Counted from the first letter of the stretch, positions 1,477 through 17,340 are shown. The stretch: DNA of 64,000 nt from Gammaproteobacteria bacterium (GCA_016193395.1 JACPSH010000015.1:37858-101857), one strand, 5' to 3'. Numbers and translations: made by a program. Notes: generated from the sequence alone by a model not told the origin.

Positions 1477-1490
1477 TTGATCGGGATCAA
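1477..1490. promoter_or_regulatory. Perfect consensus FNR/Anr box TTGATcgggATCAA in the divergent region between the cytochrome c gene and the benzoate-CoA ligase operon
   Basis: Read directly from the sequence. The site lies ~114 bp upstream of ATG 1598 and ~81 bp upstream of the minus-strand cytochrome start at 1402. An Fnr orthologue is encoded at 14128. Confidence 0.7.
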
Positions 1491-1597
1491 TTGCCTGCCC
1501 TCCGTTCTTCGATATGTATTCCACCAGCCTCGTGCCCGCCCCGAGGGCCTCGTGGACACCGGACAGGCCTGACTGGCGCGACGCTGAGCCGCAAACC

Positions 1598-3145
1598 ATG
1601 AACGCGCGCAAGATCTTCGAACCAGGCCGCATGAACGCCGCGGAAGAGCTGCTTGGGCCGCCGCTGGCCGCGGGACGCGATGACTCCACGGCACTGATTT
1701 GCGGTCCGCGCAGCCTGAGCTATGGCGAGCTGGATCGCCTCGCCAATCGCTACGGCAATGCCATGGTCGAGGCTGGCGTCGAGCAGGAAAACCGGGTGCT
1801 GATTTTCATGGACGATTCACCGGACATGGTCGCCGCCTACCTTGCGACCATGAAGATCGGGGCGGTCGCGATAGCCATAAACGTGCGCGTCGCGCCCGAT
1901 GACCTGCGGTTCGTGATTGAGGAGAGTCGTTGCAAGCTTCTGTTCATCGATGCCTGCCACGAGCAGCTTTACCGTGCCATAGAAGGCGAGTTTGCGCATC
2001 CACCCGTGGTCGTCCCCGGCGGCGCCGACAGTGGGCCTGCACATCAGGATTTTGTGGGCCACCATGCCGACACGCTCAATTACGTGCCGATGGCTGAGGA
2101 CGACATGGCTTTCTGGCTGTACACCTCCGGCACGACCGGGAAACCAAAGGCAGTCGTTCACTCGCACCATGATGTTCTCATCGCCGACCGGCATCTCAGG
2201 GAAAACCTGAACCTGGTTCCCGGCGAGCGGATACTGACCACATCGAAAATCTCTTTCGCCTATGCACTTGGGCATTCCTTCTTCGGTGGCCTGCGCTGCG
2301 GGGCAACCGTGATCCTTCATACAGGCTGGCCGGACTGCGGATCTATACTCCGGGAGATTGAGCGCTCCGCTCCCGATCTTTTTTGCAGTGTCCCGAGTTT
2401 CTACCGAAACCTGCTGCGCGAGGGCGCGGCGCAGAGCCGCGCATTCAACCGCATCCGGCATTGCATTTCCGCCGGCGAGCATCTGCCGGAACAACTGTTC
2501 AGGCAGTGGCGGGAAATTACAAGCGTCACCATTCTCGAAGGTATAGGTACAACCGAGACTATTTTTCTCTTCCTGTCCAACACGCCCGGCGCAGCGCGGG
2601 CCGGGAGCGTGGGGCGCGCCCTGCCATGGGCGGACGTGCGGCTGCTGGGTTCCGGCGGCGACGAAATCGCCGATGCAGGAGCCGTCGGCACTCTGTGGGT
2701 TCGCATGGACAGTCTCTTCGACCGATACTGGAACCAGCAGGCCAGAACCCATGCCGCATTCAAGGACGGGTTCTATTGCACGGGCGACCTCTTCAGTTTT
2801 GACGCCGATGGGTACTGGCATTACCAGGGACGGGCGGACGACATGTTGAAAATATCAGGCCAGTGGGTGAGCCCTGTTGAAATCGAGGAATGTGTCCTGT
2901 GCGTCCCTGATGTTGCGGAAGCAGCGGTGATCGGCAGAGAAGATGCTGACGGACTGGTGCGCGCCGCGTTGTTCGTCGTGCCTGCCCCTGGGCGGCCCGT
3001 GCCCGAACTTGAGCAGGCAATTCGAACAACGCTGCTCAGTCACCTCTCGATCTACAAGTGTCCGCGAACGATCCGTTTCGTGAGCGAAATTCCGCGGACC
3101 CGCACCGGCAAGGTCCAGCGCTTCAAGCTGCACCAGCTGCTTTGA
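1598..3145 (+). CDS. Benzoate-CoA ligase family AMP-dependent synthetase (aromatic acid-CoA ligase)
   Basis: The protein is an ANL-superfamily enzyme with the motif [12 protein letters not shown]. The C-terminal [11 protein letters not shown] block matches benzoate/4-hydroxybenzoate-CoA ligases. It is the first gene of a benzoyl-CoA lower-pathway operon. The start was trimmed to ATG 1598 (MNARKIFEP). Confidence 0.85.
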
Positions 3146-3161
3146 CCGGAATCTTCCGATT

Positions 3162-4235
3162 ATGAGAATCAATGCACAGCGCTGGCTGATGACCGCAAGG
3201 GGGGAACCGCTCTCACGCGCTGAATTCAATCCATTGCCGCCCGGCGCCGGTGAGGTGGTCGTCGCCGTGGCCGGCTGCGGCGTATGCCATACCGACCTCG
3301 GCTTTTTCCATAACGGTGTGCGCACCCGCCATGAACTGCCCTTGGCGCTCGGTCACGAGGTCAGCGGCCGCGTGATCGCCTGCGGCGCCGGCACGGAATC
3401 CTGGCGTGATCGTTCCGTGATCATCCCCGCGGTGATCCCCTGTGGCGAATGCGACTGGTGTCAGCGCGGGAAACCGACTATCTGCCCGAACCAGAAGATG
3501 CCGGGCAACGACATGCATGGCGGATTCGGCACCCATATCCTGGTGCCCGCGCGGGGCCTGTGCCCGGTGGACGAAACGCGTCTCGCAAATGCGGGACTGT
3601 CGCTGCCCGATGTCTGTGTCATCGCGGATGCCGTGACCACACCGCTTCAGGCGGTGACCCGATCAGGCGTCGGGCCGGGCGACATCGCCATTGTCATCGG
3701 GATTGGGGGCGTCGGCGGGTTTAGCGCCCAGATTGCCCATGCCTTTGGCGCCAAAGTCGTGGCGATTGACGTGAATCAAGGCAAACTTGACCGCATCAGT
3801 GAACATGGTGCGTCGCTTACCCTGAACTCGGGCAGGATCGGGAGTCGCGAACTGAAACAGGCAATAAGCGCCTTCGCGGAACAGTCCGGGCTGCGCCAGA
3901 CCGAGTGGGTAATCTTCGAGTGCTCCGGAACGGCGGCCGGGCAACAAACGGCATTCGGGCTCATTACCTATGGTTCGACGTTATGCGTGGTCGGATTCAC
4001 CATGGACAGGATCGAGGTTCGTCTTTCCAATCTGATGGCATTCGATGCGCGCGCCGTCGGCAACTGGGGATGTCCTCCCGGATCGTACCCGGCGGCGCTG
4101 GACCTGGTACTGGACGGGCGCATCAAGCTGCTGCCGTTTATAGAGCGCCGCCCGCTGGATGAGATCAACAGGATATTCGAGGAGGCCCATGCGCAGAGCC
4201 CGCACCGAAGGATCGTATTGGTCCCGGAACTCTAG
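3162..4235 (+). CDS. had: Zn-dependent alcohol dehydrogenase (MDR) family; likely 6-hydroxycyclohex-1-ene-1-carbonyl-CoA dehydrogenase (Had-like)
   Basis: Catalytic and structural zinc motifs are present ([18 protein letters not shown], and a [15 protein letters not shown] cysteine cluster). A Rossmann-type GIGGVGG motif is also present. Its position between the CoA ligase and the Oah-type hydrolase matches the T. aromatica dch-had-oah gene context. Confidence 0.65.
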
Positions 4236-4246
4236 GAGACTGACTT

Positions 4247-5377
4247 ATGAACGCACAACCTGAAAAACACACATCGCCCGGGACTCTGCGCGACCATGAC
4301 CTGGTCCGGGAGATGGTTGCACCGGGTGTCGTCTACGAAAAGCATCCCGTGCACACGCCGGACGGCACTCCTGTCGAGGGGCTGCATCATGCCTGGATCT
4401 GGCTGGACAACCCGAAGCAGTACAATTCCTATACGACGGAAATGGTCAAGGGCGTTATCCTCGCCTTTCGTGCCGCCAGCAACGCCAGGGATGTGGTTTG
4501 TGTCGTCTTTACAGGCACCGGCGACAAGGCATTCTGTACCGGCGGGAATGTAAAGGAGTATGCCGAATATTATGCCGGCAACCCGCAGGAGTACCGGCAG
4601 TATATGCGCCTGTTCAACGACATGGTCTCGTCGATTCTGAGCTGCGACAAGCCCGTGATCTGCCGGGTCAACGGCATGCGTATCGCCGGCGGGCAGGAGA
4701 TCGGCATGGCCTGCGATTTCACCATCGCCCAGGATCTGGCGCGATTCGGTCAGGCCGGCCCGAAGCACGGCTCCGCGCCCCTCGGCGGCGCCACCGATTT
4801 CCTGCCATTGATGCTGAGCGCCGAGCAGGCCATGGTGTCAGGCACGCTGTGCGAACCGTGGTCGGCGCACAAGGCATACCGTCTCGGGATGATCAGCGAC
4901 ATCGTTCCGGCTCTCAAGGTCGATGGGAAATTTGTCGCCAATCCGCTGGTTGAAACGGACCGCTATCTGGACGAGTTCGGCCGCATCATTCTTGGCGAGC
5001 CCAAGACCGGTAACGCGCTGAGCGAAGCCAAGGCAGTGCTGGCCAGGGGCCAGGTCGATCTGGAACTTCTGGATCGTAAGATCGAGGAATTCTGTGCCAA
5101 GTTCGTGCTGACGTTTCCGGAGTGCATGACAAAAACACTGGAGGAGCTGCGCAAACCGAAAATCAATGCCTGGAACACAAATAAGGAGGATTCCCGCGCC
5201 TGGCTCGCTCTCAACATGATGACCGAGGCAGGTGCCGGATTCCGGGCGTTCAATGAAGGGACGGGGAGCGATCGGGAGATCGACTTCATCGCCTTGCGCA
5301 GGGCGCTTGCCGCGGGCCAGCCATGGACACCCGAATTCGCCGACAGTCTGCTGCCCGCCGCCAAGTCCAGTCAATGA
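4247..5377 (+). CDS. oah: 6-oxocyclohex-1-ene-1-carbonyl-CoA hydrolase (ring-cleaving; Oah/BamA type, crotonase superfamily)
   Basis: The 376-aa protein carries the characteristic N-region ...WLDNPKQYNSYTTEMVKGVILAFRAASNARDVVCVVFTGTGDKAFCTGGNVKEYAEYYAGNPQEY..., typical of BamA/Oah ring-hydrolysing enzymes. The length (~375 aa) also fits. Confidence 0.8.
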   Translation: MNAQPEKHTSPGTLRDHDLVREMVAPGVVYEKHPVHTPDGTPVEGLHHAWIWLDNPKQYNSYTTEMVKGVILAFRAASNARDVVCVVFTGTGDKAFCTGGNVKEYAEYYAGNPQEYRQYMRLFNDMVSSILSCDKPVICRVNGMRIAGGQEIGMACDFTIAQDLARFGQAGPKHGSAPLGGATDFLPLMLSAEQAMVSGTLCEPWSAHKAYRLGMISDIVPALKVDGKFVANPLVETDRYLDEFGRIILGEPKTGNALSEAKAVLARGQVDLELLDRKIEEFCAKFVLTFPECMTKTLEELRKPKINAWNTNKEDSRAWLALNMMTEAGAGFRAFNEGTGSDREIDFIALRRALAAGQPWTPEFADSLLPAAKSSQ

Positions 5378-6144
5378 GCGGGGATCCTGTTCGCTGGCAC
5401 CGGGACCGGGACGGCCGGTTACTGCGGCTCACCCTGGCCCGGCCGCGGGCGAATATCGTCGATACAAGCATGATCGCGGCGCTGGGCCGCGTGCTGGCGG
5501 ACCATGCCGGCGATTCCGGATTGCTGGCGGTTCTGCTGGCGGCGGATGGCCCGAACTTCAGTTTCGGCGCCAGTGTCGAGGAGCATTTTCCGGAGCACTG
5601 TCGTGACATGCTGGCCGGCCTGCACGCCCTGATCAAGCGCCTGCTCGATTACCCCGTGCCGATACTCGTCGCGATCCAGGGTCAATGTCTGGGTGGCGGA
5701 CTAGAGATTGCGCTTGCCGGCAGCCTGCTGTTCGGGGCGCCCGATGCGCGCATGGGCCAGCCTGAGATCCGCATCGGCGTTTTTGCGCCGGCAGCCTCGT
5801 GTCTGCTGCCGGCGCGGGTCGGCCAGTCACGCGCCGAAGATCTGCTGTATTCAGGGCGCAGCATCGGCGCAGAGGACGCATTAGCCATGAACCTGTTGCA
5901 TGCGATCAGTGATGATCCGGTAGCGGCGGCACTCGCCTATTTTGATCAGTATCTGGCCGGCCTTAGCGCCTGCAGTTTGCGGTTTGCGCACCAGGCAGCG
6001 CGTGGTGATTACTCGATCTACTTGAAGACTCGGCTTGATGCCGTCGAGAAGCTGTATCTGGAACGTCTGATGAGCACGCATGATGCCGTGGAAGGGCTCA
6101 ATGCCTTTGTGGAAAAGCGCCCTCCCCGCTGGCAGCACAGGTGA
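5374..6144 (+). CDS. dch: Enoyl-CoA hydratase/crotonase family; likely cyclohexa-1,5-diene-1-carbonyl-CoA hydratase (Dch-like)
   Basis: The crotonase fold is indicated by ...ADGPNFSFGASVEEH...AIQGQCLGGGLEIALAG.... The ATGA start/stop overlap with the upstream gene at 5374-5377 indicates translational coupling. Confidence 0.7.
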   Translation: MSGDPVRWHRDRDGRLLRLTLARPRANIVDTSMIAALGRVLADHAGDSGLLAVLLAADGPNFSFGASVEEHFPEHCRDMLAGLHALIKRLLDYPVPILVAIQGQCLGGGLEIALAGSLLFGAPDARMGQPEIRIGVFAPAASCLLPARVGQSRAEDLLYSGRSIGAEDALAMNLLHAISDDPVAAALAYFDQYLAGLSACSLRFAHQAARGDYSIYLKTRLDAVEKLYLERLMSTHDAVEGLNAFVEKRPPRWQHR

Positions 6145-6175
6145 ACATGGCACAATCCACAGTGGAGAGAATTCA

Positions 6176-7432
6176 ATGTCGTCCCATCCTTCGGCCATCG
6201 TTTTTTCCTACGACGATATCTGGTTAATCAACGGCGTGCGCACGCCGTTTGCGGATTTCAACGGCGTGCTGGGACGCGTATCGCCGATCGACCTCGGCAT
6301 CAAGGTCGCGCGGGAGATCTTCAAGCGCAGCGGGTTGCCGCCCGCCGATATCGGCGCGGTGATCGCCGGTTCGATGGCCCAGGCCTCGTTCGACGCGTAC
6401 GTGCTGCCGCGACATGTCGGCCTCTACGCGGGGGTGCCACACGAAGTGCCCGCGACGCTCGTGCAGCGCGTCTGCGGTACCGGCATGGAAATTCTTTTGC
6501 AGGCGGCCGACGCGATCACGCTGGGGAAAATCCGGCTGGGACTTTGTGTCGGTACCGAATCGATGAGCCGGAATCCGATCGCGGCCTATACGGTCCGCGG
6601 CGGTTTTTCCCTTGGCAACGTGGAGTTCAAGGACTTCCTGTTCGAAGCGCTGACCGACACGGCGTTCGGCGGCAGCATGGGGGATACCGCCGAACGGCTG
6701 GCCCGTGATTATCATTTGAGCCGCGAGGAGGTCGACCGCTTCGCGTGCGACAGTTTTGAGCGGGCATTGGCGGCCCAGCAGAGCGGTTTTCTGGCCGGCG
6801 AGATCGTGCCGCTGACGACCGAGACCTTCGAGTTGGAAGGCTATCGTCCGCGCGGGATCCGGTTACCGAGAGAGGTCAAGGAGTTGGCGGTCGATAATCA
6901 TGTCCGGCCTTCGCCGATGGAGAGCCTGGCCAAGCTACGACCGGCATTTGGGGGAGTCCAGACAGGCGGAAACAGTTCTGCGATCGTCGACGGCGCGGCG
7001 GCGGCGCTGGTTGGCTCGGGCGAGTACTGCCGCGCCAACGGCGTCGCCCCGCTCGGCCGTATCGTCACCGGCGCCGTGGTCGGCGTCCCCCCGGACAACA
7101 TGGGTATCGGCCCGGTCGCGGCCATCCGCGCCTTGCTGGACCACCTCGGCATGAAACTCGCTGACATCGATCGGTTCGAAATCAACGAGGCCTTCGGCGC
7201 GCAGTGCCTGGCGGTCGAGCGCGAAATCGGCATTGACCATGCGCGGCTCAACGTCAATGGCGGCGCGATCGCGATCGGTCACCCGCTCGCGGCAACCGGC
7301 GTGCGCCTGACGATCACCGTCGCGCGGGAGCTGCGCCGGTCGCGCAAGCGATACGGCATCTCGTCGGCCTGCATCGGCGGCGGTCAGGGGATCGCGGTGT
7401 TGATCGAAAATCCGGAGTATGGCGCGGCCTAG
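6176..7432 (+). CDS. Acetyl-CoA C-acyltransferase (thiolase II family), beta-oxidation-like step of the benzoyl-CoA lower pathway
   Basis: Thiolase motifs are present: VCGTGMEIL (active-site Cys), NVNGGAIAIGHPLAATG and GIAVLIE near the C-terminus. The start was trimmed to ATG 6176, which is preceded by a GAGAGA stretch. Confidence 0.85.
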   Translation: MSSHPSAIVFSYDDIWLINGVRTPFADFNGVLGRVSPIDLGIKVAREIFKRSGLPPADIGAVIAGSMAQASFDAYVLPRHVGLYAGVPHEVPATLVQRVCGTGMEILLQAADAITLGKIRLGLCVGTESMSRNPIAAYTVRGGFSLGNVEFKDFLFEALTDTAFGGSMGDTAERLARDYHLSREEVDRFACDSFERALAAQQSGFLAGEIVPLTTETFELEGYRPRGIRLPREVKELAVDNHVRPSPMESLAKLRPAFGGVQTGGNSSAIVDGAAAALVGSGEYCRANGVAPLGRIVTGAVVGVPPDNMGIGPVAAIRALLDHLGMKLADIDRFEINEAFGAQCLAVEREIGIDHARLNVNGGAIAIGHPLAATGVRLTITVARELRRSRKRYGISSACIGGGQGIAVLIENPEYGAA

Positions 7433-7443
7433 TCCCTAACCCG

Positions 7444-8712
7444 GTGAATACGATAACGGACGAAAAGTCAGGCGCCGATCGGTTCGCCGAACGGCAGCGC
7501 CGCATCACCGACGCCATCGCGTTGCGGCAACCGGATCGAGTCCCGGTGGTGATGAACAGCCTGTTCTGGCATACGCGATACGCCGGGCTCACCTGCCGAC
7601 AAGCGATGTACGATTACGACGCCTTGACCGACGCAACCCGGCGCGCGCTGCGGGAACTTCAACCTGACGGTTATGTGCTCCCGCACCCGCTGCTCTGTCT
7701 GGGTCCGACGATGGAAACCATCGGATACCGGCAGTTGAAATGGCCGGGCCACGACGGGCTCGACCCGAACGTTCCGTTCCAATATCTCGATTACGAGTAC
7801 ATGCACGCGAACGAATACGAGGACTACATCTTCGATCCGACCGGTTTCATCCTGCGAAAATATCTGCCGCGGATTGCGACCGCGTTTGAGCCGTTCGCGC
7901 GGCTGCCGAATTATGCCGCGCTGTACTACACCCGCATCCTGCACTATACGCGCGCTTTCGCGGTGCCGGAGCTGGTCGCGACCTGGCAGACACTGGCCAA
8001 GGCGGGCGCCGAAATGACAGTCATGCTGACGAAGGCGAAAGCGTTTGCCGAGGAGATGGCGGCAGAAGGTTTTCCGCTGATCGAGTCCGCGACCGCGCTC
8101 TCGCCATTTGACTATTTCGCGGATTACCTGCGGGGCTCCAAGGGCATCATGCTCGATTTGTTCCGGTGCAAAGGTCTGCTGCTGGAGGCAATGGAGAAAG
8201 CGGCGCGGCTCCTGCCGGAGCCGGCCGTGGCAACCGCAAAACGGAGCGACTGTAATATCGTGTTCATCCCGTTGCATTGGCCGGGTGACAGCCTGATGTC
8301 GCCACCGCAGTTTCGGACGTTCTACTGGCCGCCGCTGCGCAAGGTGGTCATGACGTTGATCGAGAGGGGGTTGGTCCCGTGCATGTTATGGGAAGGCGAT
8401 TGCACCTCCCGGCTCGAAGACATTCGCGACATCCCCGCCGGCAAGTGCATCTATTTCTTCGAGCGCACCGACATCTTCAAGGCGAAGCAGGTGCTCGGTG
8501 ATGTCGTCTGCCTCCGCGGCAATGTCCCATCGACCCTGCTTGTGACCGGCACGCCGGACGAGGTCAGGGCCTATTGCCGGAAATTGATCGCCATCGTCGG
8601 CCAGGGTGGAGGATTCATCATGGACGGCGGCACCGGCATCCCGGACGAGGCGAAGCCGGAGAACGTCAAGGCGATGTTTGACGCGACGCGCGCCTTCGGC
8701 GGCTACCGGTAG
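7444..8712 (+). CDS. Uroporphyrinogen-decarboxylase (URO-D)/MtaA-like family protein of unknown specificity
   Basis: An N-terminal ...AIALRQPDRVPVVM... motif and a C-terminal ...VGQGGGFIMDGGTGIPDEAKPENVKAMFDATRAFG motif resemble URO-D and methylcobamide methyltransferase family proteins. It is the last gene of the benzoyl-CoA operon. Confidence 0.65.
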   Translation: MNTITDEKSGADRFAERQRRITDAIALRQPDRVPVVMNSLFWHTRYAGLTCRQAMYDYDALTDATRRALRELQPDGYVLPHPLLCLGPTMETIGYRQLKWPGHDGLDPNVPFQYLDYEYMHANEYEDYIFDPTGFILRKYLPRIATAFEPFARLPNYAALYYTRILHYTRAFAVPELVATWQTLAKAGAEMTVMLTKAKAFAEEMAAEGFPLIESATALSPFDYFADYLRGSKGIMLDLFRCKGLLLEAMEKAARLLPEPAVATAKRSDCNIVFIPLHWPGDSLMSPPQFRTFYWPPLRKVVMTLIERGLVPCMLWEGDCTSRLEDIRDIPAGKCIYFFERTDIFKAKQVLGDVVCLRGNVPSTLLVTGTPDEVRAYCRKLIAIVGQGGGFIMDGGTGIPDEAKPENVKAMFDATRAFGGYR

Positions 8713-8833
8713 CGCGCCAGGAGTGGCCGCCCGCCGGCCGGTTGGCGGCCTGCCGTGCTCTGACCAGTCCAGGACAGACTTGTTCAGCGTTTCCGCAGTG
8801 TGTCGTCCCGCGATGTTCTTGCGAAATTCCACG

Positions 8834-8950
8834 TCAGCGGGAACGTCATTCCGGGCCCGCCGCAGGCGGCGCCCGGAATCCAGCCTTCGTCAAGTGCTGT
8901 CTGGATTCCGGAACGCGGCTGCGCCGCTTCCGGAATGACGTCGTCGCGAC
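8834..8950. repeat. Long imperfect palindrome (arms ~45 bp) in the convergent intergenic region between the URO-D-like and ACS genes
   Basis: Arm 1 is GGGAACGTCATTCCGGGCCCGCCGCAGGCGGCGCCCGGAATCCAG. Arm 2 is CTGGATTCCGGAACGCGGCTGCGCCGCTTCCGGAATGACGTCGTC. The loop is ccttcgtcaagtgctgt. Confidence 0.6.
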
Positions 8951-8994
8951 GCGGGAATTGCACAAGATCATTGCGGGACGGTATAGCAGCAGCT

Positions 8995-9040
8995 TGATGC
9001 AAAAGTCCGACCATGGACTTTTGCATCACGCTGTTAGCAT
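8995..9040. repeat. 45-bp palindromic motif, copy 1 (overlaps the stop codon of the ADP-forming ACS gene)
   Basis: GATGCAAAAGTCCGACCATGGACTTTTGCATCACGCTGTTAGC has an 11-bp stem, TGCAAAAGTCC/GGACTTTTGCA. Confidence 0.75.
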
Positions 9041-11358
9041 TTGCTTTTCACGATCAGCGCATCCAGCGCCAGTACTCCGCTCGCACCCGCCCGCAACGGA
9101 TTGATATCCAACTCCTGGATCACCGGCTGCTCAACCAGCAGGCGCGAGATCGCGAGCAACGCCCGGATGATCGCTTGCTTGTCGACCGGCGGGCTGCCGC
9201 GCCAGCCATCCAGCAGGACCCGTGCCTTCAGCTCGGTGAGCATTTCCGCCGCATCCGCCTCGTCGAGCGGCACCAGCCGCATCGTGACGTCTTTCAGCGC
9301 TTCCGCCTGGGTACCCCCCATGCCGAGCAGTACCGCCGGACCGAATACCGGATCGCGAAGCCCGCCGACGATAAGATCGAGACCGGCGTTCGCCATCTTT
9401 TCGATCAGGTACGCGCGTTCGCGCAAAGGCGGGATCGCGTCGATCCGGCCGAGCGCCGCGGCGAGTTGATCGGCATCGCGAATGTTCAGATGGACGCCTC
9501 CCATTTCCGTCTTATGCAGTATGTCCACGTCCAGTACTTTGATCACGACCGGTTTCCGCAATCGCGCGAACGCGGCGCGCGCTTTCTCGTGGCCAAGGCA
9601 AACCGCGGATTCTGGCACCGGGATACCGATGGCGCGCAACAGGTCCTTGCCCTGCGCCTCGTTCAGCGCGCCGGCAGGCAGCGATGGCATCGCGGCGGTC
9701 TGGGTTATGGCGTCATCCCGGCGTTGTTTACGGTACCGGCATCGCGCGTCGTCGACGACCGCGCGCATCGCGCGGGCGGCCCGCTCGGGAGACCGGAACG
9801 GCACGACGCCCAGTTCGGCGAGCTGCCGCGCGGTCATGCGCATATCGTTATCCTCGCCGGCGGTACCGTAGATGACGGGTTTTGTGAGTCGTGCCTGCCG
9901 TTCCTTGAATAGCGCAATCGGATCCAGCACGGTCGGTTCGTGCAGGACGAATATCAGGATGGCGTCGATGCCTTCCTCTGCGGCGATAATGTCGAGCACG
10001 TTCCCGAATTCCGGCGTCGGCCGGCCGGCGTCGACCGGGTTGTTGATGTAGTGCATCGGCGGCAGCTCGCGCGCGATCCGGGCAATGCCGTCGGCGCTGA
10101 GTTTCGGCACGTCGACGCCGATGGACTTCAACTGATCCAGCATCAGCAGCCCCGCGCCGGCCTGGCCGATCAGAACGCCGACGCCCGGCGCCGGTTTGGG
10201 CGGCAGCCGGATCAGCGAGAGCGCGCTCGCGGCGTCAACCAGATCGTTCGAATTTTCCGCGATGACCGCGCCGGCCTGCCGGAAGGCCGCGACTTTCAGG
10301 TCGTAGGATCCGACCAGATTGCCGGTATGCGACTGCGCGAAGGCGCCGATTTCGTTGCGCCCGATCGTCAATGCCACGACCGGTTTCCGATCCGTCGCGC
10401 GCCGGATCGATTCGAACAGCCGGCGTCCGTCGCGGAATCCCTCCAGGTACAGCGCAATCACGCGCGTGTGCTCGTCGTCGGCGAGGTAATCGATGACGTC
10501 CGCCGCGTCGACATCAACCGCGTTGCCGAGGCCGACCGTCAGGCTGACGCCGAAACCGTCATTCTCCAGCATGCAAGCCAGGATCAGGCTCATGCCGCCG
10601 CTTTGCGACACAACCGCGATGGGCCCGGGTCCTAACTTCTGGTAGGACACCGAGAAACTCGCGACGAGCCGTTGCGGCGGGGCGGCATATCCGCCGGTAT
10701 TCGGCCCCAACATGCGGATCCCCGTCTTCCGGCAGATGTCCGCCAACCTGTCCTGCAGGCGTTGCCCTTCCTCGCCACTTTCGCCGAAGCCGCCGCCCAT
10801 GATGATGGCGGCGCCGGCCTGGATCGACGCGGCCTCCTGCAACAGATCCGGGCACGCCGCGGCCGGCACGGCGAACAACACCAGATCGACCGGCACGCCG
10901 ATCGCGGTCAACGACGGATACACGGGATGGCCGAGGATCGTCGTCTCCCGCGGATTGACCGGGTAGATCGCGCCGGCATAACTCTCCAGCAGCTGGACCG
11001 CCATATAGCCGGCTTTCCCCGGCGTCGCAGAGGCGCCGACAATCGCGATCGAGCGTGGCCGGAAAAGGCATTCGAGACCGTCTTTTTTCGTCATGACGCG
11101 GCTAGGATAATCGAAACCGGAGCGGCGGCGGGCGCGAGTGGAGCGGTCGATTGCCTCGTGGGCGATGTTGACCCCGCCGGACGGCAGTCCCTCGAGCTGC
11201 AAACGCGCATCCGTCCAGGAGAACTCTCGGCATGTCTGCGAGTAGTCATCCGGGTTCGGCACCACCTTCAGCGCCGCGGCAGTCTTGCGGATGGGATCCC
11301 AGACCATTGATTTCGTTTCCAGATTCGCAAGGACTATCACCGAAGGCAGGCACACCAT
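9034..11358 (-). CDS. Acetate--CoA ligase (ADP-forming) family acyl-CoA synthetase (fused alpha/beta; CoA-binding + ATP-grasp)
   Basis: The sequence ...CLFRPRSIAIVGASATPGKAGYMAV... is a CoA-binding domain and ...VIKVLDVDILHKTEMGGVHLNI... is an ATP-grasp domain. The architecture is typical of NDP-forming ACS. The start is uncertain: an in-frame Met at 11094 (MTKKDG...) precedes the first conserved domain, and the 88 residues upstream resemble an ANL-ligase N-terminus (see findings). Confidence 0.8.
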   Translation of the reverse strand: MVCLPSVIVLANLETKSMVWDPIRKTAAALKVVPNPDDYSQTCREFSWTDARLQLEGLPSGGVNIAHEAIDRSTRARRRSGFDYPSRVMTKKDGLECLFRPRSIAIVGASATPGKAGYMAVQLLESYAGAIYPVNPRETTILGHPVYPSLTAIGVPVDLVLFAVPAAACPDLLQEAASIQAGAAIIMGGGFGESGEEGQRLQDRLADICRKTGIRMLGPNTGGYAAPPQRLVASFSVSYQKLGPGPIAVVSQSGGMSLILACMLENDGFGVSLTVGLGNAVDVDAADVIDYLADDEHTRVIALYLEGFRDGRRLFESIRRATDRKPVVALTIGRNEIGAFAQSHTGNLVGSYDLKVAAFRQAGAVIAENSNDLVDAASALSLIRLPPKPAPGVGVLIGQAGAGLLMLDQLKSIGVDVPKLSADGIARIARELPPMHYINNPVDAGRPTPEFGNVLDIIAAEEGIDAILIFVLHEPTVLDPIALFKERQARLTKPVIYGTAGEDNDMRMTARQLAELGVVPFRSPERAARAMRAVVDDARCRYRKQRRDDAITQTAAMPSLPAGALNEAQGKDLLRAIGIPVPESAVCLGHEKARAAFARLRKPVVIKVLDVDILHKTEMGGVHLNIRDADQLAAALGRIDAIPPLRERAYLIEKMANAGLDLIVGGLRDPVFGPAVLLGMGGTQAEALKDVTMRLVPLDEADAAEMLTELKARVLLDGWRGSPPVDKQAIIRALLAISRLLVEQPVIQELDINPLRAGASGVLALDALIVKSKC

Positions 11359-11360
11359 GC

Positions 11361-11374
11361 TTGATCCCGATCAT
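11361..11374 (-). promoter_or_regulatory. FNR-like box TTGATcccgATCAt abutting the first ATG of the ADP-forming ACS ORF
   Basis: It is a 9/10 match. Its position is only consistent with a promoter if translation starts downstream (Met 11307 or 11094). Confidence 0.35.
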
Positions 11375-11574
11375 AATGCGGTTCCGAACCCGGTGCGGGA
11401 AACGCCCATTAATGCCTAAATGACGGCACCGCAACCTTAACAGGGTGATGTAAAACCCCGTTTAGCGTCACCCTGCGGCTTCCTGCGGACGGAACGCATC
11501 GCGTATTGAATACCTAAGTGTTTGATATGCGGAGCGAGGCCGAAGCTGAGTTTTGGCCGGAGCGAGATGTAAAA

Positions 11575-11617
11575 GTCCACGGATGGACTTTTGCATAAAC
11601 TTGTTAAGGGGGAAATC
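11575..11617. repeat. 45-bp palindromic motif, copy 2 (between the ACS 5' region and the PRTase gene)
   Basis: GATGTAAAAGTCCACGGATGGACTTTTGCATAAACTTGTTAAG matches copy 1 at ~36/43 positions, including the tail ...GCAT(C/A)A(C/A)C(G/T)TGTTA. Confidence 0.75.
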
Positions 11618-11633
11618 CGCGAGACAATATCAC

Positions 11634-12323
11634 ATGCGTGCCTGGCGTATTTTCTCGGATCGCATAGAGGCCGGACAGGATCTGGCAAAGGCGCTGGCCG
11701 TACACCGCGGCCGACCGGACGTGGTCGTGCTCGGACTGCCCCGGGGCGGCGTGCCGGTGGCGTTCGAGGTAGCCCGCTTTCTGGGGGCGCCGCTGGATGT
11801 ACTGATTGTGCGCAAGCTCGGTGTACCCGGGCATACCGAACTCGCCATGGGGGCCATCGCCACGGGCGGCATCCGCCTGCTGAACGACGAGGTCATCCAG
11901 GCACTGCAGATCCCGATGGAACAGATTGACCGGGTCGCCGCGCAGGAGCAGCGCGAAATGTCGCGGCGCGAAATGGCCTACCGCGGCGACCGGCCGCCGC
12001 TGGACCTGCGTGGCCATGTCACCATCGTCGTGGACGACGGCATGGCCACGGGTTCCACCATGCGCGCGGCCGTGCAGGCCCTGCAGCGGCGCAACGCGTC
12101 GAAGATCGTCGTCGCCGTTCCCCATGCGCCCGCCGACACGGTCGGAGAGTTGCGCGCGATGGGCGCGGAAGTGGTGTGCCTGGAAATGCCCGAGCCCTAT
12201 TTTTCCGTTGGATCGTGGTATCGGGAGTTTCCGCAGGTCGACGATGCCGAGGTCAGAAATCTCATGAAGAAGGCCGGGCGGCGGGCGTTGAAGAGCGGGA
12301 GAGCAGCCGGCGGGCAAACTTAG
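11634..12323 (+). CDS. Phosphoribosyltransferase family protein
   Basis: Translation: MRAWRIFSDRIEAGQDLA...VVLGLPRGGVPVAFEVARFLGAPLDVLIVRKLG...TIVVDDGMATGSTMRAA... The PRTase PRPP-binding motif VVDDGxATGST is present. Confidence 0.7.
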   Translation: MRAWRIFSDRIEAGQDLAKALAVHRGRPDVVVLGLPRGGVPVAFEVARFLGAPLDVLIVRKLGVPGHTELAMGAIATGGIRLLNDEVIQALQIPMEQIDRVAAQEQREMSRREMAYRGDRPPLDLRGHVTIVVDDGMATGSTMRAAVQALQRRNASKIVVAVPHAPADTVGELRAMGAEVVCLEMPEPYFSVGSWYREFPQVDDAEVRNLMKKAGRRALKSGRAAGGQT

Positions 12324-12889
12324 CCGACGACGTGATGTTTGCCGACGACGCTGATCGACGTCGCCTGCGGCCCGGCTTCCCCCTGCTCTTCGTTGAAGCG
12401 CACCTCCGCGCCGATTTTCAGGTTGCCGAAGGCGGCGTTGATCAGGCTGTGGCGGTGAAAATACACGAGCCGGCCATCCGGTGTCGCCAGCCTCCCGAAA
12501 TTCTTTTCGGGCCAGAGTTCCGCAATGCGGCCGTGCAGCACCGGTTCGCGCGTCTTGACGTCCCCGCGACGGCGGCGCATGTAATCCTCCAGTTGCCGCG
12601 CGACGGCGTTGAACGCGTCCCGAACTGCCACGTAGACGTCCTCGTGCGCGTGGTGCCCACCGGGACTGCGCTTCACCACGATTTCCTCGCCGGGCACCGT
12701 GACATCGATCCGGATGTGATAGAGATTGCCCTTGTGGTGGTGCCGGTGCGGCGCCTCCACCATTACGCGGCAGCGCATGATCTGGTCACAGAACTTATCG
12801 AGCTTGTCCGTGCGCTCGCGGATGCGGGCCTCCACGGCCGCCGAGGGTTTAAGGTTACGGAAACTGATCTCCAGCGGGACCGATGCCAT
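12320..12889 (-). CDS. Ribosome hibernation promoting factor (HPF/RaiA, S30AE) fused to a C-terminal cold-shock-like domain
   Basis: The N-terminal ~110 aa (ISFRNLKPSAAVEARIRERTDKLDKF...YVAVRDAFNAVARQLEDY) match HPF/YfiA. The C-terminal ~65 aa (HGRIAELWPEKNFGRLATPDGRLVYFHRHSLI...LKIGAEVRFNEEQGEAGPQATSISV) follow the CspA pattern G-I-x-WF-x-KGFGFI...G-DVFVH-S-I...G-V-F...G-KGP-A. Confidence 0.65.
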   Translation of the reverse strand: MASVPLEISFRNLKPSAAVEARIRERTDKLDKFCDQIMRCRVMVEAPHRHHHKGNLYHIRIDVTVPGEEIVVKRSPGGHHAHEDVYVAVRDAFNAVARQLEDYMRRRRGDVKTREPVLHGRIAELWPEKNFGRLATPDGRLVYFHRHSLINAAFGNLKIGAEVRFNEEQGEAGPQATSISVVGKHHVVG

Positions 12890-13001
12890 GGACGTCCTCC
12901 AGCACGCGGCGTTGCGCGGCGACTACCGGACAGAGCATAACGTCATCGGCGCCGGGGGGAATGATCCCGGTCAAGTCCGGATCGCGGCGCGGTTTGCAGG
13001 A

Positions 13002-13970
13002 TCAGCGTTGTCGGTCGACAAAGTAACGCAGCCCGCGCAGGGTCGGCGAATCGCATGTCATCAGAAACGTCGGGATCGCTTCCAGGTAGGAACGGTAGCG
13101 GCCCTTGTCGACGAACCGCTGCCTGAAACGCGACGCGTTCAGCTGCGCCCGAAGTTCGGGAAGAATGCCGCCGGCCAGGAAGATGCCGCCGGTGGCGCCC
13201 AGGGACAGGGCGAGGTCGCCGGCCACCGTACCCAGCAGGGCAAAAAAGGCGTCCAGCGCTTCTACGGCATGAAGATCTTCGCCCGAGATCGCGCGCCGGC
13301 TGATCTCGGGTGCGGCGGGCGCCGGTTGCATCGCGGCACCCGGGCCACCGGCTACCAGGCGGTACAGGTTTTCGATTCCGGGCCCCGAAAGCGCACGCTC
13401 CGCGGAGACGTGGCCGAATTCCTGCTCCAGCCCTTCCACCATCCCGCGTTCCCGTCGGTCACGGGACGGCAGCGTGACATGCCCGCCTTCGCCTGCAATC
13501 GGGATCCAACCCGGCCCGGACTTCACCAGGCCGGACACGCCAAGTCCGGTTCCAGGACCGAGCACGCCGATGTTGCCATCGGGCACGGACCGGCCCGTGC
13601 CGATCTGGACCCGATCCGCAGGCCCGAGCGAAGGCACGGCAAGCGCCGCGGCGCACATGTCGTTGATCAGGTGCACGGCCTCAAACCGGAACTGTCCTCT
13701 GAGTTCCGCCGCCTCCAGGCGCCAGCCGAGATTCGTCAGCGTTACGCTTTCGCCTGACACCGGCCCGGCCACCGCGAATGCCGCCGTATGAGGCGTGCGA
13801 CCCCGGCAGCGTTCCGCCAGGAACGCGGCGAGGATCGCCGCGACGCCGCTATGCCGGGCATTTTCGACTACAAATGGGGGGGGCATGCCCTCACCCGGAA
13901 TGGAGAGGGCAAGGCGAGTATGGGTGCCCCCGATATCCCCGAGCAGTACAGGCGAGTGGATTGCATTCAT
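13002..13970 (-). CDS. glk: Glucokinase
   Basis: The N-terminus LLGDIGGTHTRLALS matches the Glk motif LVGDVGGTNARFAL. The length (322 aa) is typical for bacterial Glk. Confidence 0.85.
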   Translation of the reverse strand: MNAIHSPVLLGDIGGTHTRLALSIPGEGMPPPFVVENARHSGVAAILAAFLAERCRGRTPHTAAFAVAGPVSGESVTLTNLGWRLEAAELRGQFRFEAVHLINDMCAAALAVPSLGPADRVQIGTGRSVPDGNIGVLGPGTGLGVSGLVKSGPGWIPIAGEGGHVTLPSRDRRERGMVEGLEQEFGHVSAERALSGPGIENLYRLVAGGPGAAMQPAPAAPEISRRAISGEDLHAVEALDAFFALLGTVAGDLALSLGATGGIFLAGGILPELRAQLNASRFRQRFVDKGRYRSYLEAIPTFLMTCDSPTLRGLRYFVDRQR

Positions 13971-14127: not shown

Positions 14128-14871
14128 ATGGATGTACACGAACTAAAAATCTCCTGCCAGAAGTGCCGGCTCAGCGAGCTGTGCCTGCCGTATGGCCTGG
14201 AGTCAGAGGAGCTGGATCGCCTGGAGCATATCGTTCAGCGCCCGGCGCCGCTGCGGCGCGGCGAGGTCCTGTATCGCGCCGGCGGATCCTTCCATGCCAT
14301 CTATGCGGTCCGTTCCGGGGCCCTTAAGATTTTCTCCGGCTCGGAAGACGGGCACGAACAGATTTTGGGTTTTTATCTGCCCGGCGAACTGCTCGGCCTG
14401 GACGGCATGGACAAGGACCTCCACAAGTGCACCGCCGTGGCGCTCGAGACGAGTTCCGTATGCACCTTGCCGTTCAACCAGTTGAGCGTGCTGTGCGAAA
14501 AGATCCCGGGACTGCAGAAGCGCCTGTTCCGGCTCATCGGCCGGGAGATCGGCGTCGAACACGAATTGCTGCTGATGATGGGACAGAAGGACGCCGAGGA
14601 AAGGCTCGCCATCTTCCTGGTCACGCTGGCCGCCCGCTTCAAGAGGCGCGGCTACTCCCAGAGTGAATTCCGGCTGCCGATGAGCCGCCACGATCTCGCC
14701 AATTACCTCGGACTCACGCCCGAGACCGTGAGCCGGCTGTTTGGTCGTTTTCGCAAAAACGGGCTGATAGAGACCAACCGCAGTCTGGTCAAGCTCCTGG
14801 ACATGTCGCGTCTTGTAACGTTGTGCGCCGGCCCCGAGGATGCGGGCCGCCTGGCCGCCGTCATGAACTGA
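14128..14871 (+). CDS. fnr: Fnr/Anr-type oxygen-sensing CRP-family transcriptional regulator
   Basis: The N-terminal Cys cluster ISCQKCRLSELCLP plus an internal Cys in ...ETSSVCTLP correspond to the four [4Fe-4S] ligands of FNR. A C-terminal HTH (...DLANYLGLTPETVSRLFGRF...) is present. Overall similarity to E. coli FNR is close. Confidence 0.85.
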   Translation: MDVHELKISCQKCRLSELCLPYGLESEELDRLEHIVQRPAPLRRGEVLYRAGGSFHAIYAVRSGALKIFSGSEDGHEQILGFYLPGELLGLDGMDKDLHKCTAVALETSSVCTLPFNQLSVLCEKIPGLQKRLFRLIGREIGVEHELLLMMGQKDAEERLAIFLVTLAARFKRRGYSQSEFRLPMSRHDLANYLGLTPETVSRLFGRFRKNGLIETNRSLVKLLDMSRLVTLCAGPEDAGRLAAVMN

Positions 14872-14894: not shown

Positions 14895-14908
14895 TTGATC
14901 CAGATCAG
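14895..14908 (+). promoter_or_regulatory. Near-consensus FNR box TTGATccagATCAg upstream of the CBS-pair gene
   Basis: It is a 9/10 match to TTGAT-N4-ATCAA. It lies ~115 bp upstream of ATG 15017 and directly downstream of the fnr stop. Confidence 0.5.
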
Positions 14909-17326: not shown

Positions 17327-17340
17327 TTGATCCGGATCAA
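17327..17340. promoter_or_regulatory. Perfect consensus FNR box TTGATccggATCAA in the divergent region between the kinase-like gene (minus) and the host-attachment/archease operon (plus)
   Basis: Read directly from the sequence. The site is ~118 bp upstream of ATG 17452 and ~64 bp upstream of the minus-strand start at 17269. Confidence 0.65.

Follow-up and report, generated by a model that had tools for sequence, protein, structure and literature searches.

A methyltransferase I-type homologue ends an FNR-box operon of benzoyl-CoA pathway genes in a gammaproteobacterium: a candidate for anaerobic O-demethylation

The stretch of DNA analysed here, hereafter the window, comprises 64,000 nucleotides of the metagenome-assembled genome (MAG) of an uncultured gammaproteobacterium (GCA_016193395.1, JACPSH010000015.1:37858-101857). 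Close to its start lies an operon preceded by an FNR box, in which genes of the benzoyl-CoA pathway are followed by a thiolase gene and by a gene for a 422-aa protein of the uroporphyrinogen decarboxylase (UroD) superfamily. Comparison with characterised proteins suggested that this last protein is very probably a corrinoid-dependent methyltransferase of the methyltransferase I (MTI) type, the corrinoid dependence itself being predicted. According to the composite model put forward here, which is given an even chance, the MTI of this FNR operon would O-demethylate a methoxylated aromatic acid for the hydroxybenzoate-type ligase encoded by the first gene, with its partner proteins supplied in trans. 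O-demethylation is the most likely role of the protein as judged from its genomic context.

The best match of the protein in the PDB is, by far, CdmB (E 2e-29 with the single sequence and 2.5e-45 with the family profile). The profile match runs in three collinear segments over residues 6-421, so that the homology to a characterised MTI is full-length and includes the N-terminal extensions between the first β-strands; identity is 28% over the C-terminal 237 residues. The same profile matches UroD with E 7e-10 and MtaA with E 2e-4. The AlphaFold model of the protein is confident (pLDDT 94.7), and a Foldseek search with it against a PDB library that lacks CdmB returned UroD and MtaA matches only. 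CdmB is the chloromethane:corrinoid methyltransferase (MTI) of Acetobacterium dehalogenans (PDB 9rui), a zinc-free TIM barrel of the UroD superfamily with extensions, and has been grouped with the O-demethylase MTIs MtvB, OdmB, VdmB and MtoB (PMC13222342).

Pfam assigns only the C-terminal half of the protein to the URO-D family (91 bits; residues 191-417 on profile positions 119-345). This match and the UroD fold would suit a decarboxylase of the URO-D type with a carboxylated aromatic or alicyclic intermediate as its substrate, one of the two roles suggested by the first-pass annotation. However, the hemE equivalog model TIGR01464 scores 37.2 bits against a cut-off of 302.95, with only residues 285-416 aligned, and the Pfam alignment leaves unmatched the N-terminal region of the Arg/Arg/Asp substrate-binding motif of UroD. 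The catalytic-site His in the C-terminal 'GHGI' of Pseudomonas aeruginosa UroD (4wsh) is not kept, Thr397 being found opposite to it, and corrinoid systems are the setting of the entire family. A decarboxylase is accordingly very improbable, and the evidence favours the other suggested role, O-demethylation.

The analogy with MtaA did not hold either. An MtaA/MtbA-like methyltransferase II (MTII), that is, a methylcobamide:thiol methyltransferase, would need a zinc site, whose ligands in MtaA are H-x-C...C (numbering as for 4AY7). In the alignment with 4ay7, 'lHiCG' stands opposite L315-W316-E317-G318 and 'GCG' opposite G396-T397-G398, so that the ligand positions are occupied by Leu315, Glu317 and Thr397. 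The family models for MTIIs of the MtaA/MtbA/CmuA type, TIGR01463, NF040654 and NF004889, give 34.6 (cut-off 235), 30.5 (cut-off 400) and 43.9 bits (cut-off 244), and the canonical gene clusters of the family, described below, already hold a separate pterin-binding MTII; this alternative is hardly credible. The comparison of profile models and zinc ligands, which had been proposed for deciding between a decarboxylase and a corrinoid methyltransferase, thus came out on the methyltransferase side, with neither the UroD signature nor the MtaA ligands being present. Low hemE and MtaA scores, the lost His and zinc ligands and the CdmB match together indicate an MTI-type homologue rather than a decarboxylase or an MtaA-type MTII.

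The operon consists of six tightly packed genes on the same strand, as had been annotated: ligase, had, oah, dch, thiolase and the URO-D-family gene, with gaps of 16, 11, -4, 31 and 11 bp between consecutive genes. Simple scans of these gaps gave no convincing promoter or terminator. The features of the locus are as follows.

1477-1490: perfect FNR/CRP-family box TTGATCGGGATCAA, located by a site scan
1598-3145, plus strand: aromatic acid-CoA ligase (predicted), 515 aa; the open reading frame (ORF) opens at 1514, the real start being ATG 1598
3162-4235, plus strand: had, 6-hydroxycyclohex-1-ene-1-carbonyl-CoA dehydrogenase (TIGR03201, 541 bits, cut-off 339)
4247-5377, plus strand: oah/BamA, 6-oxocyclohex-1-ene-1-carbonyl-CoA hydrolase (TIGR03200, 641 bits, cut-off 464)
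5374-6144, plus strand: dch, cyclohexa-1,5-diene-1-carbonyl-CoA hydratase (TIGR03189, 379 bits, cut-off 293)
6176-7432, plus strand: degradative thiolase, 418 aa, with a GGAGAG ribosome-binding site upstream
7444-8712, plus strand: MTI-type methyltransferase homologue (UroD superfamily), 422 aa, GTG start
8725-8750, plus strand: GC-rich hairpin, 13 bp past the stop codon of the MTI gene, without a T-run
9034-11094, minus strand: convergent ADP-forming (NDP-forming) acyl-CoA synthetase, 686 aa, counted from Met89 of its ORF
11361-11374: one-mismatch FNR-like site TTGATCCCGATCAT, upstream on the acyl-CoA synthetase side
14128-14871, plus strand: fnr orthologue, with C-x2-C-x5-C plus a central Cys ([4Fe-4S] motif) and an E--SR recognition helix

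The hairpin at 8725-8750 probably marks the end of the operon, where it may act as a terminator. The start of dch was adopted from an independent gene call on contig L163. The proteins of the locus are deposited at NCBI as MBI2993411-MBI2993421, the product of the last operon gene (MBI2993416.1) being labelled 'hypothetical protein HYY48_04475'. Since two independent read assemblies reproduce the junctions from ligase to thiolase with 99.7-100% identity, the arrangement is not an assembly chimera or a binning artefact.

The start of the ligase at ATG 1598 fits the family model, the NCBI protein MBI2993411.1 (100% identical, 515 aa) and independent gene calls. The protein passes the benzoate-CoA ligase model TIGR02262 (399.6 bits, cut-off 375), while its best NCBIfam model is that of HbdA, 3-hydroxybenzoate-CoA ligase, with 685 bits and below the cut-off of 1000; a literature search on hbdA found no papers. 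Its nearest relative outside the organism (63% identity) is encoded beside p-cresol-methylhydroxylase-like and 4-hydroxybenzoyl-CoA-reductase-like genes. By these matches the enzyme is a predicted aromatic acid-CoA ligase of the benzoate/hydroxybenzoate type. The products of had, oah and dch each exceed their NCBIfam equivalog cut-offs and are thus orthologues, and together with the ligase they cover the part of the benzoyl-CoA pathway that follows the reductase. Among named organisms, oah has its nearest relatives (77-79% identity) mostly in Alphaproteobacteria, e.g. Rhodomicrobium and Magnetospirillum.

The perfect FNR box ahead of the operon, already pointed out in the first-pass annotation, is located in a 147-bp divergent region between a cytochrome c gene and the ligase gene, and its centre precedes the ligase ATG by 114 bp. 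Class II FNR geometry would be compatible with the TATGTA hexamer at 1513-1518. The fnr orthologue, likewise annotated earlier, was confirmed by its four-Cys motif and E--SR helix, and NCBI also names it Fnr; a TTGAT-N4-ATCAA site upstream and a cognate FNR in the genome are therefore both at hand, and on this footing the operon is probably FNR-activated. FNR-type sites with at most one mismatch number seven in the window against 0.77 expected, a count that none of 100 shuffles reached. The others include promoter-like intergenic sites at 14895 (upstream of a CBS-domain gene), 17953 (upstream of archease-rtcB) and 22612 (upstream of glgP), a perfect site at 17327 between a kinase gene and a Host_attach/baeRF12 gene, and a one-mismatch site at 3766-3779 inside the had coding region, which is probably a chance match. 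FNR control of an RNA-repair operon and of glycogen phosphorylase would be unusual.

The composite model builds on what was found, namely the family of the last protein, the mosaic order of the genes, the FNR site and fnr; from these we infer a methoxy-aromatic substrate, co-transcription of the genes, and the supply of partners and reductase in trans. When oxygen is lacking, FNR would switch the operon on. The methyl ether then bound by MTI, for which methoxylated aromatic acids, e.g. methoxybenzoate, are the likeliest candidates, would be offered to the Co(I) of a corrinoid protein encoded elsewhere, which would accept the methyl group, and an MTII would hand this on to tetrahydrofolate. The freed hydroxy-aromatic acid would be thio-esterified by the operon ligase and its ring dearomatised by a reductase encoded elsewhere; the products of dch, had and oah would open the ring and the thiolase would shorten the chain. 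Corrinoid protein, activase and MTII would have to come in trans, for which A. dehalogenans offers a precedent, an unlinked activase there serving several systems (PMC13222342).

The family to which the MTI homologue belongs is large, with more than 1,900 matches at 90% clustering and, among 50%-identity representatives, 3,822 matches with E <= 1e-3 and 319 with E <= 1e-30. About 165 loci (numbered with the prefix L) were fetched, and the neighbours were typed by tblastn with reference proteins. About 95 relatives with 44-63% identity sit in one conserved, complete corrinoid cluster, which has the canonical order methylenetetrahydrofolate reductase (MTHFR; DUF5981)-corrinoid protein-MTI-233-aa protein-RACo activase-pterin-binding MTII-amidohydrolase and is represented by loci including L002, L003, L006 and L009-L086. 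FolD is additionally present in the cluster of Thauera aromatica LG356 (L080 9291-16166). The hosts are Rhodospirillaceae, Burkholderiales, Thauera, Phaeospirillum, Geobacter, Desulfobacteraceae and Acidobacteriota. The 233-aa protein has neither an NCBIfam match nor a precomputed Pfam hit, and the cluster from MTHFR to amidohydrolase appears to be uncharacterised. Genes for sodium:solute symporters (SSF) adjoin some of these clusters (L003 and L013 at 11342-13340, with DUF485 in L003; L080 at 63-1805), which hints at small carboxylates as substrates of the family. Among the fetched loci had, oah and dch adjoin the gene in the window only, in agreement with the earlier view that a URO-D-family gene is atypical of benzoyl-CoA clusters.

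The window protein falls into a subclade of 12 members (68-80% identity), which is monophyletic in 100 of 100 neighbour-joining bootstraps and whose nearest outgroups all adjoin a corrinoid protein. The set linked to corrinoid proteins has 74 columns with at least 95% conservation, and 70 of these are retained in the subclade, so that the invariant residues of the MTI family are largely preserved. About ten invariant substitutions are specific to the subclade, several of them just after predicted β-strands, where the active sites of TIM barrels lie; this pattern suggests an altered specificity rather than a new chemistry.

In 9 of the remaining 11 subclade loci the URO-D-like gene is immediately preceded by the gene of a thiolase orthologue (76-86% identity), which overlaps it by 4 bp in L001. 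The URO-D-like gene, which had been seen as an extra on a benzoyl-CoA operon, is thus better described as one half of a conserved pair. Downstream, five loci (L004, L005, L007, L008 and L162) carry a convergent ADP-forming acyl-CoA synthetase gene, whose product is 62-72% identical to that of 9034-11094, and three carry 4HBT-type thioesterase genes. A gene for an HpaB-2-type phenol hydroxylase occurs with a glutathione S-transferase gene in four loci, three of them also with a corrinoid protein gene; the latter lies 3-4 kb upstream in 3 of the 11 other members (L004, L008 and L089). MAG B4_bin.12 carries both a subclade locus (L008) and a canonical MTI-RACo-MTII locus (L044). The HpaB-2-type hydroxylase, 4HBT thioesterases, SnoaL, EthD and 3-hydroxyacyl-CoA dehydrogenase found at other subclade loci provide an aromatic context. 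A reading of the HpaB-family neighbour as 4-hydroxybutyryl-CoA dehydratase, with an aliphatic substrate, was rejected, no dehydratase model being among the hits; its best model is the HpaB-2 monooxygenase (672 bits, below the cut-off of 885).

The closest long relative locus (L001 7664-20728, 79% identity) adjoins nosZ. Besides the thiolase-MTI pair it encodes a second MTI paralogue (51%), SnoaL, three hotdog thioesterases, a 3-hydroxyacyl-CoA dehydrogenase, an ABC transporter and a chalcone-isomerase-like protein, a gene content that resembles a beta-oxidation route for methoxylated phenylpropanoids in a denitrifying host. At L008 3259-4439, the thiolase upstream of MTI was recovered as two overlapping tblastn pieces, which points to a frameshift or an assembly error.

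The constancy of these partners raises the question of a role on CoA thioesters. The thiolase-linked subclade might be a new corrinoid-type demethylase of substrates such as methoxy-aroyl-CoA, formed by thiolysis or ligation, or might act without a corrinoid. Such a role would explain the constant pairing with thiolase and with thioesterase or synthetase, as well as the loss of adjacent activase and MTII, and the substitutions near strand ends would fit it. It is nevertheless improbable, both for the subclade and as a reading of the window protein, as most family-invariant columns are kept, a corrinoid protein is still near in three members, and the role has no precedent. If true, it would bring O-demethylation without oxygen into direct connection with the benzoyl-CoA pathway of this organism, with FNR in control.

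The operon looks like a mosaic, since the thiolase-MTI pair is conserved elsewhere without benzoyl-CoA genes. The GC content at third codon positions (GC3) is 0.709 for ligase, 0.716 for dch, 0.735 for had and 0.748 for oah, which are the lowest, second, fifth and tenth lowest of 49 genes, while it is 0.811 for thiolase, 0.797 for MTI and 0.803 for the acyl-CoA synthetase (window mean 0.789, sd 0.038). The closest relatives of the thiolase-MTI-synthetase module are from gammaproteobacterial MAGs, those of oah mostly alphaproteobacterial. In the related gammaproteobacterial MAG locus L007 the module lies about 6 kb from gmk-yicC-rph, with no benzoyl-CoA genes within ±10 kb of it; in the window, gmk-yicC-rph is found 27 kb downstream of the module. 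Simple synteny with L007 was rejected, the Na/Ca exchangers not being orthologous and only gmk-yicC-rph being common, in rearranged form. It would appear that the ligase-had-oah-dch block was inserted upstream of a resident thiolase-MTI pair, although the composition signal is modest. With the block looking like the addition, the thiolase may belong to the methyltransferase module and not to the ring pathway.

These findings also suit a different explanation, in which the module is an unrelated neighbour, co-transcribed only after the block had landed upstream, and serves some other methylated substrate, be it a halomethane, a phenylpropanoid side chain or an aliphatic acid with a methylthio or methoxy group, for instance. 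The rise of GC3 exactly at the dch/thiolase boundary, the different origins of oah and module relatives, the block-free module of L007 and the return of the module, free of benzoyl-CoA genes, at every one of the 11 other subclade loci argue for it. Against it stand gaps of 31 and 11 bp, too short for an obvious promoter or terminator, the aromatic-catabolic contexts of other subclade members, and the requirement for a thiolase after oah. On balance, this explanation is considered rather unlikely.

Several observations weigh against the composite model of O-demethylation for the operon ligase. No ring reductase was found: BcrAD_BadFG, HGD-D and AOR families were absent in a Pfam scan of 54 ORF products across the window, tblastn of the window with Aromatoleum subunits like those of benzoyl-CoA reductase (BCR) gave no match, and none was found in the 6.4 kb further upstream on an independent contig of the same organism. 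The earlier statement that no BcrABCD or BamB-I genes occur within 64 kb is thereby upheld, and the search beyond the window that it had recommended extends the absence to about 70 kb in total. MTI genes are accompanied by those of a cognate corrinoid protein, of an MTII and, in many cases, of an activase; in the 64-kb window, tblastn with the corrinoid protein, RACo, MTII, MTHFR and amidohydrolase of the canonical cluster gave no match, and an Rfam scan revealed no cobalamin riboswitch or other RNA. None of the 11 other subclade loci has ligase, had, oah or dch. The low-GC3 block beside a thiolase, MTI and synthetase of mean GC3 implies that their juxtaposition may be recent and functionally coincidental. 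The substrate is not readable from homology, the closest characterised relative, CdmB (28% identity), using chloromethane and rejecting methoxy-aromatics (PMC13222342), and the tight pairing with thiolase is not accounted for by a simple O-demethylase role.

An alicyclic substrate entering the same modified beta-oxidation, also considered in the first-pass annotation, was rejected; this route requires an acyl-CoA dehydrogenase, and none is encoded in the window.

Most of the 320 bp that separate the convergent genes of the URO-D-like protein and the acyl-CoA synthetase are taken up by an inverted repeat (8804-8883 / 8901-8980; 80-nt arms, 73% complementary), which is present in a single copy in the window and absent from the fetched loci; it may be a MITE-like (miniature inverted-repeat transposable element) insertion or a large bidirectional terminator. 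The ORF of the synthetase runs 88 codons upstream of its true start Met89 at 11094 (about 11095-11307, minus strand). Part of this extension is similar to the N-terminal end of an AMP-forming acetate-CoA ligase (NF003313, E 3.5e-7), and the extension is probably a gene relic from a rearrangement. The rest of the window is of housekeeping character (glycogen genes, rtcB/archease, polX, rph-yicC-gmk-spoT-recG, coaX, birA and cysH).

Anaerobic growth of facultative nitrate-respiring bacteria on methoxylated lignin monomers has long been reported, and corrinoid O-demethylases are known in acetogens, Desulfitobacterium and some archaea. To our knowledge, the methyl-removing enzymes of such nitrate respirers have not been established, and literature searches on corrinoid O-demethylation in denitrifiers gave nothing relevant. 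Sharing an FNR-box operon with the genes of a hydroxybenzoate-type ligase and of ring-opening enzymes, the MTI-type gene is a directly testable candidate, which makes the locus a tractable lead into anaerobic demethylation in respiratory bacteria. A further outcome of the comparison is a large family of complete corrinoid methyltransferase clusters in Proteobacteria and Acidobacteriota, which appears not to have been studied.

With the Thauera-type lower pathway (dch-had-oah), the window shares three enzymes above equivalog thresholds. It differs in the order had-oah-dch, in the hydroxybenzoate-type ligase placed in front, in having no reductase or ferredoxin nearby, and in the thiolase and MTI that come after the block. 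The anaerobic 3-hydroxybenzoate (hbd) pathway has been outlined (PMC9765128). An hbd-type cluster of Aromatoleum toluclasticum (L166) encodes a ligase 54% identical to that of the window, together with a BCR-like reductase of its own, SDR dehydrogenases, an acyl-CoA dehydrogenase, a TRAP transporter and two crotonases that reach only 26-29% identity with the window dch; it contains neither a had of the Zn-ADH type nor oah. Partners of the L166 type are absent from the window, and the joining of a hydroxybenzoate-type ligase to canonical dch, had and oah indicates that the window does not hold an hbd cluster.

The canonical corrinoid clusters and the window have the MTI family in common (44-63% identity, with 70 of 74 invariant columns kept), whereas the subclade of the window protein has left the cluster, its partners being thiolase and acyl-CoA synthetase or thioesterases. 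CdmB resembles the window protein in length (429 and 422 aa), in collinearity including the N-terminal extensions, in the UroD-type barrel and in the absence of an MtaA-type zinc site. The window gene, unlike that of CdmB, has no adjacent corrinoid protein or MTII gene but thiolase and acyl-CoA synthetase neighbours, and its host is a facultative gammaproteobacterium rather than an acetogen. The O-demethylase MTIs MtvB, OdmB, VdmB and MtoB are likened to the window protein through the placement of CdmB (PMC13222342). They are encoded with a corrinoid protein and MTII in strict anaerobes, where they feed the Wood-Ljungdahl pathway or methanogenesis; their chemistry, transfer of the methyl group of an aryl methyl ether to Co(I), is the same as that proposed for the window protein.

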